Shown piece after piece: positions 17,087 to 60,122 of a DNA stretch of 64,000 bases. The notes below the pieces were generated by a model. That model did not search any database. It had not been told where the DNA came from and was given only the letters and a program-made list of their open reading frames with translations. Within the stretch, counting starts at the first letter, position 1. Every line of letters starts with the position of its first letter. The translations under genes and the position numbers were made by a program. Source of the stretch: Thermoplasmata archaeon (GTDB taxonomy: Archaea; Thermoplasmatota; Thermoplasmata; RBG-16-68-12; JAFNFQ01); NCBI GenBank assembly GCA_041489255.1, contig JBGPQV010000001.1:1-64000 (forward strand), written 5' to 3'.

Positions 17087-17185
17087 GCCGCAGTAACTCA
17101 GCTGGGAGAGTGCGAGACTGAAGTACGAGGGTCAGGCCCTCGCGCGGAAATCTCGAAGTCGCCGGTTCAAGTCCGGCCTGCGGCA
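17087..17185 (+). tRNA. tRNA-Phe(GAA) with 26-nt intron at 37/38 (17124-17149)
   Basis: Acceptor GCCGCAG/CTGCGGC, D-stem ACTC/GAGT, anticodon stem CGAGA/TCTCG, T-arm GCCGG-TTCAAGT-CCGGC; intron hairpin CGAGGG/CCCTCG. Confidence 0.93.
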
Positions 17186-17188
17186 CGT

Positions 17189-17296
17189 CCCGCCTTAGCT
17201 CAGCCTGGTAGAGCGGGTGACTGTAGAAGGTTCCCGCCAGAATTGGCGGTGCCCGCTGGCATCATCAGGCCTCCGGTTCAAATCCGGAAGGCGGGA
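17189..17296 (+). tRNA. tRNA-Tyr(GTA) with 34-nt intron at 37/38 (17227-17260)
   Basis: Acceptor CCCGCCT/AGGCGGG (C1-G72), anticodon stem GGTGA/TCATC, T-arm TCCGG-TTCAAAT-CCGGA; intron hairpin CCGCCA/TGGCGG. Confidence 0.93.
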
Positions 17297-55799: not shown

Positions 55800-55803
<4 letters not shown>

Positions 55804-58800
55804 TTCAAGTCCTCCAGTTGAAGGCGCATCGCAATTCCGAGCGAGAGCAGCTCGTCGAGCAGAAGTTTGAACGCGTAGCTCGTCTGCACAGGGTAGATGC
55901 GGGAGTTGTTGTCGCAGACGGGGCACCTGAGGTTCCCCTTCCTGTCCTTGATGGCGAAGTGACCGCACTCCGCCTCCCCGCAGACGTACTGTATCGTGCC
56001 GTCCGACTCGTCGAGCAAGCGGTCCTTGATGACCATCGCGGCGCCGTGGCCTATGAGACAGTCCCGCTCCATTTCGCCGAACCTCAAGCCGCCCTGGCGG
56101 GAGCGGCCTTCCGTCGGCTGCCGGGTGAGTATCTGCACGGGCCCTCGCGACCTCACGTGCAGCTTGCCGCTGACCATGTGGTGCAGCTTCTGGTAGTAGA
56201 TGACACCGATGAAAATCTCGGCGGGGATGATCCTGCCCGTCATGCCGTCGTACATGACCTCCTTGCAGTTGCTCTTGAAGCCGTAGTCCTCGAGTTCCTT
56301 GCGCAGGGCCTCCTCTCTCTCGCCGCTGAAAGGCGTGCCGTCGACGAACCTCCCCTCCATGGCACCGACCTTCCCGCCAATCATCTCGAGGACGTGCGCG
56401 ATTGTCATCCTCGAAGGGATGGCATGCGGGTTGATGATGAGGTCCGGCACGATCCCATGCTCTGTGAACGGCATGTCCTCCTGCTGGGCAATCAGCCCAA
56501 TCACACCCTTTTGCCCATGACGGGAGGCGAACTTGTCGCCGAGCTCCGGCACCCTGAGGTCCCTGACCTTGACCTTGGCGAGCTTGCTACCGTTCTCGGA
56601 CTCGGTGAGCATGACACTGTCGACCCAGCCGCTCTCCCCGTGCCTGACTGTTACGGACGTCTCGCGCCTCTTCTGCGGCGTGAGGAAGTCAGTCTCCTCC
56701 TCAAGGAAACGCGGCGGCGACGTCTTCCCTATGAGAACCTCTCCACCGTTGACCTGAACCTCTGGCGATATCAGACCGTCGTCCGGAGTGAGGCTCGCGT
56801 AGCTGAGGTCTGCGCGCGCTCCGCGAACATCGGGGGACGGGATCTCGAAGTGGTCCTCCTGCCCGCCGGGGTACCTGCGCTCCTCGGATCTGTACGTCCT
56901 CATGAAGGACGAGCGACCGAGACCCCTGTCAATTGACGCCTTGTTCATCACGATGGCGTATTCCATGTTGTACCCGTGGTAGGACATGACCGCCACGACG
57001 AAATTCTCGCCTGCCGGTCTCTCGTTGAAACTGACGAACTTCATCGCCTCGGTCTGGACCATAGGGACCTGCGGGTTGTGCAGCAGATGGCTTCTCGTGT
57101 CCGGCCTTATCCGGTAGTTGCTGGAGCCGAATCCGAGCGACTGCTTCGCCATGCCCGCGCCCATCGTGACCCTGGGTGACGAGTTGTGCTCCGGGTAAGG
57201 AACGAGGCCAGAGGCGACGCCGAGTATGACCAGCGGATCGATCTCGGCATGGGTGTTGTCCAGGGTGAGAGATGGCTTGACTCGGAACGACTTGCCGCAC
57301 AGGCGGCACTCCAGTTCCACGTCGCCGTCCTCGCCCATGTTCGCCCACCTTACGTCGTTGCGCGATATCGGGCGGCGGCACTCCTTGCACTTCAGCGGGA
57401 CCTCGTATGGATATATCGACACGAACGAGTCCTCTTCCTCCTCCGCGTCGATCCATTCAACCAGGCCGTTCCTGACCAGGTCGCTCCACTTCAGGCGTCC
57501 GGACTCCAGGTCCGTCAACTGCTTCGCCGTTATCAGCGGCTTGCCGTCCCTGACGACCATGAGGGGCCGCCTTATCCTCCCCTCGTCGCAGTTGATCGTG
57601 ACGTCGTTCATCATCTCGTCGTAGTGGATGTTCACCTCGTGGCTCAGCAGCCCGCTGCGCCTCCTTTCCCTGATTTCGGACACCAGCGTCGCGGGATCAT
57701 CGTGCAGTCCGACCAGGTCTCCGTTCACGTAGACCCTGGTCAGGTTCGTCTGCTGGCTCTTGACCTGCTTCGTGCCCAGGTCCGCCAGAAGCAGCTTGAC
57801 CTCGTCCTCCGAGAAACCTTCCGAGACATCGATCACGAGGGCGCAGTTCTTCACCAGCCCGCAGTTCTGCCCTTCGGGGGTCTCGTTGGGGCACAGCCGC
57901 CCCCATTGCGTCGGATGCAAGTCCCTGGCCTCGAAGTGTGGCTGGCTGCGCGTGAGCGGGGATGTGATCCGCCTCAGGTGACTGAGCGCGCTGATGTTGT
58001 TCGTCCTGTCTAAGAGCTGCGAGACTCCTGCCCTCCCGCCAACCCAATTGCCCGTGGCCAGGGCGTGAAGCAGCCTCTGGCTCAGCAGGTCCGGCCTGAT
58101 CGCCGACGCGATCTTGATGTCCTTGCGGCGGGCATAGCTCCTCTCGAGCTGGTACTTGAGGTCCTTCACCAGGTTGGCGAACGCCACTCTGAACAGGTCC
58201 TCCATCAGGTCCCCCGCCAGCTTCAGTCTCTTGTTGGCGTAGTGGTCCTTGTCGTCCTCGCGCCTCTTGCCCAGGTAGAACTCCAGGACGGACCTGGCGG
58301 TTCTGCCTAGGAAGATCGCCTTCTTGATCCTGTCCTCCCTCGTGTCCCCGAGGTGGGGCAGCAAGCTCCTGTCGAGGATCGACTCGACCTTCTTTATCCT
58401 GTACTCCTTCGCTTGACCCGTGGCAAACTTCTTCTCGAGGAAGCCGAGAGCGTCCTCCCTGGTGAAGATGCCGTTCGGCGGGTACTGTTTCTTGCTCTGG
58501 CACTCCTCTATGTTCGCGTAGAGGATGCTCGCCATCTCGGGAGTCGAGACGATAGCGTTGTAGATATCCTCGTCCTTTTCCATGCTCAGGGCCTTCATCA
58601 GGATAATCAGCGGAATCTGGCCGGACGCGGTCGGGACAGTCACTATGAGCATCCCGTCCTTCTTCATCTCGACGAGGGTGAGCGCACGGTAGCCCTCGCG
58701 CTGTGAGAACACCTTGGCCACTGGTATCTTGCGGCCGTACCTCTCGTTGTACTCAACGAGCACCCTGTTAGGTGCGAGGTCCTCCAGTGAAATTAGAACC

Positions 58801-59390
58801 CTCTCTGTGCCGCCAATGATGAAGTACCCGCCAGGGTCTGCGTGGTCTTCTCCCATCTTGACGAGCCTGTCGCGGAACTCCTGATCGGTGATTTCTCCAT
58901 CTACCTCCAGGTTCTCCCTGTAGAGCGAGCACTTCTTGCTCTTTGTCATGATCGGCAGGTTGCCTATGTGCACCCTCTCCGGCTCCCTCTCGATCCCGTT
59001 CTCGATGACGGTGAAGTCGAGGTAGACAGGCGCCTGGTAGCTGAGGTTCCTCAGGCGCGCCTCCATCGGCGTGAGCGGATGCGTCGCCCCGTTCGCCTCC
59101 TTGACGATCGGCAGCGACACCGAGATGGTCGGCTTCGCCTCCATGTCGATCTTGCCCTTGTCGTCCCTCTTCCGCCCTATCCTGATCTCAATCGTGTCCC
59201 CCTCGGTGCGGTCCTCGTCCAGCTTGAACACGCCGCGCCTGTCGTCCTCCGGGGACGACCTCATGTTGTCCACTATGCGCTGCATCCTGCTGTTAGGGTT
59301 GTCGAGCGTCGGCAGGAAATCGTTGATGCTAGCTATGTGGTGGTTGACGATGCTCCTCTCGCGGAAAAACGCCTCGATAAGTTCTCTCAT
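55800..59390 (-). CDS. rpoB: RNA polymerase subunit B (fused)
   Basis: [47 protein letters not shown]. Confidence 0.97.
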
Positions 59391-59393
59391 GAC

Positions 59394-59663
59394 TCACCTC
59401 CCCACGACGAGCCTGTACGCCTCCGACACACCAGCGGTCTCGCTGATCCTCGTGACCTTGATTATCGTGCCTTCGGGAATCGGCGCCTTCCTTGCCTTCT
59501 CCAGAACCTGTACGGCGGGGTCGATTCCCCTGATCTTCGGCAACTGGTCCTTGGTCACCCTGAGGGCCTTGAGGACTTCCTCGGATTCCTTGTCGGTCAA
59601 GACACGATGCTCTGGGACTAGCTTATGCTCTAGCACGTTGAACTTCAACGTGGACTCCTCCAT
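59394..59663 (-). CDS. rpoH: RNA polymerase subunit H
   Basis: HKLVPEH, QLPKI...DP, SETAG...YR; ATG at 59663 (the longer ORF overlaps the tRNA). Confidence 0.93.
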   Translation of the reverse strand: MEESTLKFNVLEHKLVPEHRVLTDKESEEVLKALRVTKDQLPKIRGIDPAVQVLEKARKAPIPEGTIIKVTRISETAGVSEAYRLVVGR

Positions 59664-59703
59664 TGTCGGCGGGGGCGGGGTGCATTCTGCCTCGACGCTG
59701 AAA

Positions 59704-59878
59704 CGGGCCCGCGGGGATTTTCGAAGCCCCACTTGTTTCTGGCAGGCAGGGCATTTTCGAACCCCGGACCACCCGGTTTCTTCACCAACGCAACCCTTTC
59801 GAGTTCCATCAGTTAAAAGCCGGATGCTCTATCTAGGGACGGTCTCTGAGACATCCAACCTAGCTGAGCTACGGGCCC
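59704..59878 (-). tRNA. tRNA-Lys(TTT) with three introns: 20/21 (59831-59857, 27 nt), 37/38 (59778-59813, 36 nt), 59/60 (59718-59755, 38 nt)
   Basis: Removing the three segments gives a 74-nt cloverleaf GGGCCCG TA GCTC AGCTAGGTA GAGC A TCCGG CTTTTAA CCGGG TGGTC CGGGG TTCGAAT CCCCG CGGGCCC G; each junction forms a 4-bp BHB-type helix. Confidence 0.93.
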
Positions 59879-59921
59879 CCGGTATCAGCGCTGGACACAT
59901 GCGAACCCGTTCGAATCATTG

Positions 59922-59940
59922 ACTCCTTAATAAGTTTTGC
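59922..59940 (-). promoter_or_regulatory. BRE/TATA upstream of tRNA-Lys/rpo operon
   Basis: Minus strand reads AAAACTTATTAAGG ~50 nt upstream of the tRNA 5' end. Confidence 0.55.
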
Positions 59941-60122
59941 GGTTAGCCCCGTCCTGCAGGCCCTCATGGAGACGCACCAATTCTGGGCGCTTAGACAATC
60001 CGCGCCTTCTCCGCGGCGATATCCGGGTCCCGCACCTCACGCAACGAAGGCAGACACAAGCGAACGAGGCTCGCGATTCCTTTCTCGAAGAGTTTAAGAG
60101 AGGATGTGTCTTCGCAGTTCTC

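Follow-up and report, generated by a model that had tools for sequence, protein, structure and literature searches.

A three-intron tRNA-Lys(UUU) gene in a Thermoplasmata archaeon, with intron sites conserved across its order and in many families of the class

How could a tRNA be produced from a gene that is more intron than exon? The question is raised by positions 59704–59878 of a 64,000-nucleotide (nt) stretch of Thermoplasmata archaeon DNA (GCA_041489255.1, contig JBGPQV010000001.1, positions 1–64,000; hereafter the window, belonging to the genome we call G000), a locus that an earlier reading made from the sequence only had parsed as tRNA-Lys(UUU) with introns in the D-loop, anticodon loop and T-loop. 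We are confident that this locus is a functional gene, and as far as found the sole tRNA-Lys(UUU) gene of its genome, encoding a 175-nt precursor whose three bulge-helix-bulge (BHB) introns would be cut by a single splicing endonuclease, EndA, and whose exons would be joined by RtcB. According to this proposal, the gene would be transcribed as the 175-nt precursor; EndA would act at six sites, each two nt into a 3-nt bulge; the RtcB ligase would join four exons into a 74-nt tRNA; and CCA, the 3′ end not encoded in the gene, would be added to the product. The BHB mechanism proposed here is the standard one, and three-intron BHB tRNAs are established for Thermoproteales. Among these steps we infer the removal of the D-loop and anticodon introns, the action of EndA as the only cutter and the order of events.

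The gene lies on the minus strand, with its 5′ end at window position 59878 (precursor position 1) and its discriminator base G73 at 59704, and the acceptor stem GGGCCCG/CGGGCCC closes the fold. Four exons (precursor positions 1–21, 49–65, 102–123 and 162–175) are separated by introns at 20/21 in the D-loop (22–48, 27 nt), 37/38 in the anticodon loop (66–101, 36 nt) and 59/60 in the T-loop (124–161, 38 nt). Exon 1 (59858–59878) supplies tRNA positions 1–20, comprising the acceptor 5′ strand, U8, A9, the D-stem 5′ strand and the D-loop to U20, and is invariant in all 30 distinct homologues described below. It is followed by intron 1 (59831–59857), with a CUAG/CUAG central helix, bulges GUU and AUA and an inner hairpin. 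Exon 2 (59814–59830; tRNA 21–37) carries the D-stem 3′ strand, A26, the anticodon stem 5′ strand and C32, U33, U34, U35, U36 and A37; intron 2 (59778–59813), at the canonical site, has the helix CUUU/GAAG, bulges UAA and AAA, and a GAAA-capped hairpin (precursor 74–87). Exon 3 (59756–59777; tRNA 38–59) extends from A38 through the anticodon stem 3′ strand, the variable loop UGGUC and the T-stem 5′ strand to UUCGAA, and intron 3 (59718–59755) has the helix UUCG/CGAA and bulges AAA and AAU, with the T-stem as its adjacent outer helix. Exon 4 (59704–59717; tRNA 60–73), likewise invariant in 30 of 30, consists of U60, the T-stem and acceptor 3′ strands and G73. The helices and bulges named in the sequence-only reading (CUAG/CUAG with GU^U and AU^A; CUUU/GAAG with AA^A and the GAAA hairpin; UUCG/CGAA with AA^A and AA^U) are all present, and its assignment of 101 of the 175 nt to introns was upheld by parsing, splicing and homologues, to which the strand is now added.

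The expectation that standard annotation would miss the gene proved correct. ARAGORN returned only a tRNA-Gly elsewhere in the window and nothing from the unspliced Lys(UUU) sequence, and the Rfam tRNA model did not reach the locus at its gathering threshold or at a permissive one; a permissive Rfam scan of 59500–60100 gave a small nucleolar RNA match alone, which was taken as chance. Once the three introns were removed in silico, ARAGORN reported a 74-nt tRNA-Lys(ttt), the complete cloverleaf with G73 that the sequence-only reading had described, with an acceptor stem of 7 base pairs (bp), a D-stem of 4 bp, a D-loop of 9 nt, anticodon and T-stems of 5 bp each and a 7-nt T-loop. Other combinations of intron removal gave a clean Lys(ttt) only when introns 1 and 3 were removed and ARAGORN was run with its intron option; with partly spliced variants this option called Leu or Phe on the wrong strand, and these calls were disregarded as spurious. 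For the unspliced RNA the predicted fold has an energy of −80.9 kcal/mol (z = −4.9), a stability matched by none of 200 shuffles. The anticodon UUU occupies positions 34–36 of a 7-nt loop with U33, the gene is orthologous to known Lys(UUU) genes, and its lysine identity is predicted from anticodon and orthology together. Natural 74-nt intronless Lys(UUU) genes from five complete genomes (families f12, f20 and f24) align with the spliced product without gaps in 5 of 5 cases, with 62–67 of 74 positions identical and with D-loop, anticodon-loop and T-loop lengths equal. The gapless match to these orthologues thus fixes the three junctions to the nucleotide.

When DNA of the locus was used to search the window's genome, a congener and 39 further genomes of the order, 41 in all from seven families and ten genera, 40 gave a match; the one without is 83% complete. 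All 33 parsed loci of the order (30 distinct; three of the 33 drawn from a separate RpoH search) share the division into four exons by three introns and the sites of those introns, with intron lengths of 27–35, 22–52 and 27–38 nt. Mean exon identity is 97.9%, with 4 of 74 columns variable, and the intron cores average 67%, 52% and 60%. In exon 2 only positions 26 (A/G) and 29 (C/U) vary; the change at 29 goes with G/A at its partner 41, turning a C-G pair of the anticodon stem into U-A. In the alignment of 30 sequences, the named structure pairs 95.3% of cells, compared with 32–53% when the partners are slid by 1–3 columns, and changes on both sides are found at nine pairs (76 cells). In the two inner intron helices tested, 4 of 4 and 4 of 5 pairs covary. 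None of 500 shuffles reached the observed covariation score, a control that can overstate for related sequences; the slid-partner controls are free of this weakness.

These comparisons bear on two readings that would deny the locus its function. The first, that the insertions are chimeric joins introduced by metagenome assembly or binning, we regard as having almost no likelihood. The assembly of G000 (2.74 Mb, 59% G+C) does consist of 41 contigs, like a metagenome assembly, but the same 175 nt, without a difference, recur in the congener G001 and in the public record of a relative with 99% RpoH identity, at least half of the sampled words of an 801-nt stretch around the gene are present in 14 sequencing runs, and the same architecture is found in dozens of independent assemblies, including single-contig genomes. 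The second reading holds that the locus is a decaying or non-functional relic, while the 3.5% of the genome missing from the assembly would hold an intronless Lys(UUU) copy, or AAA would be decoded differently. It is favoured by a completeness of 96.47% and by the rarity of AAA, which is nevertheless used (3 of 65 Lys codons in rpoB), and we judge it very improbable: the exons are 98% conserved over seven families while the introns diverge with compensatory changes, and the gene is matched in 40 of the 41 genomes searched. Rfam reports 40 tRNAs and no tRNA-Lys in G000, a cloverleaf scan that allows insertions finds one Lys(UUU) and one Lys(CUU), and the second Lys(UUU) gene that the sequence-only reading had proposed looking for was not found there by blastn-short with the intronless orthologues, which matched only the Lys(UUU) and Lys(CUU) loci. 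In G077, a genome assembled as one contig and belonging to another family, the locus likewise offers only a gene interrupted by D-loop and T-loop introns. A functional, interrupted gene is accordingly the reading we retain.

RNA libraries offer a view of the transcript. A run search with the 801-nt stretch returned 20 runs that hold part of it, three of them on record as RNA, and four runs were compared (X16–X19); stretches without cover by RNA contigs are uninformative, and runs holding a small share are no evidence of habitat. The unspliced gene is present in contigs of RNA runs X16 (59677–59894) and X19 (59692–59843). In a 227-nt contig of RNA run X17 (depth 3.1), position 59717 is joined to 59756, skipping 59718–59755, which is the predicted 38-nt T-loop intron; a 7-nt T-loop results, the D-loop and anticodon introns are kept, and the contig continues into rpoH. 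Because deletion between the 9-nt direct repeats flanking this intron would drop 36 nt, not 38, the length of the gap fits enzymatic splicing.

Turning to the motifs that the endonuclease would recognize, the window gene has 4 of 4 central-helix pairs at all three introns. In the D-loop intron the 4-bp central helix, the 3-nt bulges and an inner helix of at least 2 bp are all kept in 30 of 30 sequences, and an outer helix beside the 3′ bulge is found in 0 of 30: A14 and G15 face the bulge, and the D-stem starts 2 nt off. From its sequence, this motif is best described as the relaxed HBh′ form, in the terms of PMC5829648 and PMC6379350. The central helix of the anticodon intron has its full 4 bp in 22 of 30 sequences, the remaining 8, all of one family, pairing at 2 of 4 positions; in the window gene its inner helix does not pair at all in strict register (0 bp) but reaches 7 bp with a 2-nt 5′ bulge. 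The T-loop intron has a 4-bp central helix and a 5-bp outer helix, the T-stem, in all 30, with an inner helix strictly in register (at least 2 bp) in 17 of 30; that of the window gene comprises 1 bp, a U-U mismatch and then 7 bp. The Lys(UUU) introns therefore do not take the strict hBHBh′ form, in which flanking helices directly adjoin both bulges, and the absent D-loop outer helix and off-register inner helices indicate motifs that are partly relaxed.

The candidate enzyme is encoded at a single EndA locus in G000, with both PF01974 matches in one open frame. The open reading frame, likely of 350 amino acids (aa), matches PF02778 and PF01974 twice each, and EndA is predicted to have the alpha′2 architecture, with two tandem units in one polypeptide. 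Its best PDB match is the fused Methanopyrus kandleri enzyme (5X89; E = 1.6e-38, residues 2–333), followed by the alpha′2 enzymes of Archaeoglobus fulgidus and, over the last 84 residues only, Thermoplasma acidophilum (2OHC). Residues Y290, H298 and K329 align with M. kandleri Y295, H303 and K334, a triad with described catalytic roles (PMC5829648), and are invariant in 18 of 18 Thermoplasmata orthologues; the catalytic His position, as read from the M. kandleri alignment, is not kept in the N-terminal unit. EndA is 11 residues shorter than Aeropyrum pernix alpha at the specificity-loop site and collinear with Methanocaldococcus jannaschii EndA, and a specificity-loop insertion is absent at that site in all 18 orthologues. 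With no insertion relative to A. pernix and M. jannaschii, none of the loops L1, L2 and L3 (PMC5829648) is seen. Residues 17–168 match residues 130–290 of the ARMAN chain locally, the ARMAN span being 9 residues longer. The hallmarks of broad specificity are thus lacking, as EndA has no inserted loop and is encoded by one two-unit gene, not by separate alpha and beta genes or as a three-unit protomer. Determining the type and loop of EndA had been suggested along with the idea of a broadened-specificity endonuclease; the outcome, an alpha′2 enzyme with no known specificity loop, collinear with that of M. jannaschii and free of an A. pernix-type insertion, leaves such broadening not evident from sequence. 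RtcB is also present in G000. Most Thermoplasmata families share the 350-aa two-unit EndA (36–61% identity); the enzyme of family f24 (about 290 aa) is alike only over its last ~85 residues, as with T. acidophilum 2OHC, and that of f20 (about 299 aa) is without a 14-residue stretch of the N-subdomain in the catalytic unit. Since f12 combines a 350-aa EndA with an intronless Lys(UUU) gene, the form of the enzyme does not by itself predict introns.

Several of these observations weigh against the proposed splicing of a sole Lys(UUU) gene by EndA. The D-loop motif has no adjacent outer helix in any of the 30 sequences, the inner helix of the window's anticodon intron is off register, and alpha′2 enzymes are rated narrow in specificity (PMC6379350, PMC4033280). 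With the genome 96.5% complete, an intronless copy could sit in the missing part. The X17 joint comes from a single low-depth contig of a strain 95–99% alike, with DNA carry-over possible, and the run contigs, which derive from related strains, contain no junction of the D-loop or anticodon intron. In addition, in X18, probably a DNA library, one contig lacks 34 nt within 59719–59754, which would leave an 11-nt T-loop; this may be a strain variant, an aberrant product or an assembly artefact. Support for splicing at the RNA level, drawn from the T-loop intron in one contig, is weak.

In a third alternative the gene is real, but plain BHB recognition by EndA would not suffice for the D-loop insert: the introns would have to leave in a set order, an auxiliary factor would have to help, or the enzyme would have to recognize the tRNA body in its folded state, in the manner of eukaryotic enzymes. 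The missing outer helix beside the 3′ bulge, where A14 and G15 lie instead, and an EndA without the insertions linked to relaxed-motif cleavage would both be explained in this way; in vitro the M. kandleri EndA, which has no loop, is poor at cutting an HBh′ D-arm intron, though mature tRNA is found in vivo (PMC5829648), and the X17 contig has lost the T-loop intron while the other two are still in place. However, all 30 sequences retain the inner helix and, between two 3-nt bulges, the 4-bp central helix, as selection for recognition by EndA predicts; the D-stem, only 2 nt away, may act as the outer helix, and no candidate for another nuclease came up, although no search was aimed at one. We therefore consider an additional requirement of this kind unlikely, if less so than either reading that denies the gene its function, and keep to cleavage of all three introns by EndA.

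Is the Lys(UUU) gene one of many such genes in its genome? The scan for cloverleaves with insertions, anchored on the T-loop motif, gave 139 loci, mostly long and implausible, from which those shorter than ~180 nt and confirmed by ARAGORN after splicing were retained; it overlooked Ile(GAU), with its divergent T-loop, and is thus not exhaustive. ARAGORN was wrong on five intron-bearing Rfam matches, for which manual parses were used. Rfam and the scan, each checked by in-silico splicing and ARAGORN, together give 47 tRNA genes with 46 anticodons. Ten genes have 37/38 introns (Phe, Tyr, Asn, initiator Met, a second CAU tRNA, Ser-CGA, Trp, Ile-GAU, Lys-UUU and Lys-CUU), seven have 59/60 introns (Lys-UUU, Lys-CUU, a CAU tRNA, Leu-UAA, Ser-UGA, Ser-GGA and Arg-CCG) and two have 20/21 introns (Lys-UUU and Val-UAC), a load of ~0.4 introns per tRNA gene. 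Lys-UUU is the sole three-intron gene and Lys-CUU the sole two-intron gene, and the nine non-canonical introns are found at two positions only, 59/60 and 20/21. A 4-bp central helix flanked by 3-nt bulges is common to the seven T-loop introns; of the six that lie outside Lys-UUU, five have an inner helix of at least 5 bp. Recent transposition of introns between tRNAs, in the Thermoproteales manner, was considered and set aside; between tRNAs, the cores of the T-loop introns are on average 50% identical, and one pair reaches 0.78. Altogether Rfam missed seven tRNA genes of G000 and scored an eighth in part, with both Lys tRNAs among these eight. The tRNA counts and completeness figures of such assemblies will be too low without intron-aware tools.

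The class survey applied the same DNA query to 151 genomes; 13 loci were read by eye and 14 more were aligned motif-free to the spliced product. Six of 20 fetched stretches gave no parsed gene (L086–L089, L094 and L095), families f14, f16, f19 and f22 gave partial BLAST matches only, from which no conclusion is drawn, and the tallies of this query and of EndA forms include one unpublished genome (G129), on which no statement rests. Three-intron Lys(UUU) genes are found in families f9, f13, f15, f18 and f26 and in the window's order; D-loop and T-loop introns occur together in f8, f10, f11, f17, f21, f27, f28, f29 and f30; D-loop and anticodon introns in f23; and a T-loop intron alone in one f8 genome. 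The gene is intronless in f12, f20 and f24, which account for the five complete genomes used above. The occurrence of Lys(UUU) introns at the same sites order-wide and in many families points to introns that are old and retained, not recently spread. On this comparison of sequences, the 20/21 and 59/60 introns of Lys(UUU) are probably ancient and common to many families, and the 37/38 intron to a subset. The suggestion of an intron-proliferating lineage finds no support in the form given, in view of the two non-canonical sites in G000 and the conservation of the Lys(UUU) sites across order and class. A finding that the sequence-only reading had named as counting against it, that such genes are already common in described relatives, holds by half: they are common in the genomes of uncultured relatives, whereas the five complete genomes, from three other families, are intronless. 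Its placement of the genome near Thermoplasmata is borne out by the relatives, recorded as Thermoplasmata, Methanomassiliicoccales or Methanobacteriota archaeon. The mcrA gene is absent from G000 and present in an f12 genome; the host lineage is a non-methanogenic one within Thermoplasmata, of an order left unnamed here.

Downstream of the tRNA, 40 nt away and on the same strand, lies the open reading frame of rpoH (59394–59663, minus strand), for the 89-aa subunit H of RNA polymerase; an unsplit rpoB comes next (55800–59390), and the order tRNA-Lys, rpoH, unsplit rpoB is retained in relatives. Co-transcription of tRNA-Lys with rpoH is possible, as one RNA-library contig spans the tRNA into rpoH. 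The minus strand carries a TATA-like TTATTAA at 59927–59933, upstream of the tRNA by 52 nt, and RNA-library contigs end near the tRNA 5′ side at 59882 and 59894. Elsewhere in the window, on the plus strand, Rfam finds and manual parsing resolves tRNA-Phe(GAA) (17087–17185; 26-nt 37/38 intron) and tRNA-Tyr(GUA) (17189–17296; 34-nt 37/38 intron), which lie 3 nt apart; default ARAGORN misses both, and its intron option calls Phe as Ser.

Among the other contigs of G000, clean tRNAs were obtained after in-silico splicing for six further genes with 59/60 introns, namely a CAU tRNA (C1:136794–136896, +), Leu-UAA (C1:264975–265089, −), Ser-UGA (C2:210251–210368, −), Arg-CCG (C6:74486–74592, +), Ser-GGA (C9:2905–3027, +) and Lys-CUU, which also has the 37/38 intron (C29:5065–5190, +), and for Val-UAC with its 20/21 intron (C17:18123–18223, +). 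The tRNA-Trp(CCA) gene (C1:157000–157173, +) has a ~107-nt 37/38 intron with GTGATGA, CTGA and CTGA motifs, which we take to resemble the box C/D guide RNA of haloarchaeal tRNA-Trp introns. The tRNA-Arg(UCU) gene is present twice, 1.3 kb apart and with the same Rfam score (C1:151195–152580, +), and a 3′ tRNA fragment lies between the two (151798–151854), an arrangement that looks like the scar of an element integrated in a tRNA gene. A probable tRNA-Pro(UGG) (C8:47494–47567, −; Rfam 16.5 bits) has good acceptor, anticodon and T-arms and an enlarged D-loop with a hairpin, in which no intron borders were placed.

How do these findings sit with what is known of archaeal tRNA introns? In the current picture (PMC4033280, PMC5829648, PMC6379350), non-canonical and multiple introns are tied to EndA forms that have gained loops, and the introns of alpha4 and alpha′2 hosts are essentially canonical. 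Alpha4 and alpha2 enzymes are described as cutting canonical BHB motifs only, with one Korarchaeon as the sole alpha2 organism with non-canonical introns (PMC4033280); a 2018 study assigns the remaining Euryarchaeota exclusively to alpha′2 and links tRNA disruption to loop insertions (PMC5829648), and the T. acidophilum enzyme is classed as narrow in a review of 2019 (PMC6379350). Multi-intron tRNAs are listed in a 2014 review for Crenarchaeota, Nanoarchaeum equitans, M. kandleri, Methanothermobacter thermautotrophicus, Korarchaeum and ARMAN (PMC4033280), and the statement that they are mainly a feature of Thermoproteales and some DPANN agrees with PMC4033280 and PMC5829648. The available part of a comparative genomics study of Methanomassiliicoccales mentions no tRNA intron (PMC4153887), and our full-text literature search found no published account of multi-intron tRNAs or of D- or T-loop tRNA introns in Thermoplasmata, although databases and supplements (PMC8450103 Table S7; PMC5829648 Figure 7 and supplements) may list such cases. 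Set against this picture is a large euryarchaeal class with a conserved two- or three-intron tRNA-Lys, nine non-canonical introns in G000 and a loop-less alpha′2 enzyme.

The main question raised is how a loop-less alpha′2 EndA handles the relaxed D-loop motif, and 30 sequence variants of three substrates, together with the matching enzyme, form a natural test case for EndA specificity. We put forward, as a tentative generalization, that most uncultured Thermoplasmata may keep ancient 20/21 and 59/60 introns, up to three per gene, processed by a loop-less alpha′2 EndA that would also cut the relaxed HBh′ motif of the D-loop. If so, there would be a further, unrecognized route to relaxed-motif cleavage, or alpha′2 enzymes would be less narrow than the current scheme holds; class-wide retention of the sites would also suggest a function for the introns, for example in shielding the tRNA gene from integrating elements or in ordering modification of the elbow formed by D- and T-loop.

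Four known systems offer comparison. In Thermoproteales, tRNA genes have up to three BHB-bounded introns, at 37/38 and non-canonical sites, that are missed by simple finders (PMC4033280, PMC8450103); they carry 0.84 introns per gene, at many positions and similar between tRNAs through transposition, and their (alpha-beta)2 EndA has a specificity loop (PMC4033280, PMC8450103, PMC5829648). The window's genome is alike in having up to three introns per tRNA gene, which would be spliced by protein at BHB-type motifs, and differs in its load of about half that, its two non-canonical positions, its class-wide conserved sites and its loop-less alpha′2 EndA. In a eukaryotic tRNA case the same three arms are interrupted, each by one intron (PMC9602550); the likeness is by arm, the endonuclease there has four subunits, and there is no evolutionary link. 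ARMAN-2 (Ca. Micrarchaeum) is, like the present host, a non-TACK archaeon with non-canonical and multiple tRNA introns (PMC3239211, PMC3488258, PMC4033280), unlike it in an epsilon2 EndA of three units with a specificity loop of its own, where the enzyme described here has two units. Finally, M. kandleri pre-tRNA-Glu(UUC), together with the enzyme of PDB 5X89, provides a euryarchaeal multi-intron tRNA with an HBh′ D-arm intron and an EndA without a loop (PMC5829648), as in the window's lineage; the two differ in tRNA identity and intron positions, and in that EndA is encoded there by separate alpha and beta genes and here as one polypeptide.

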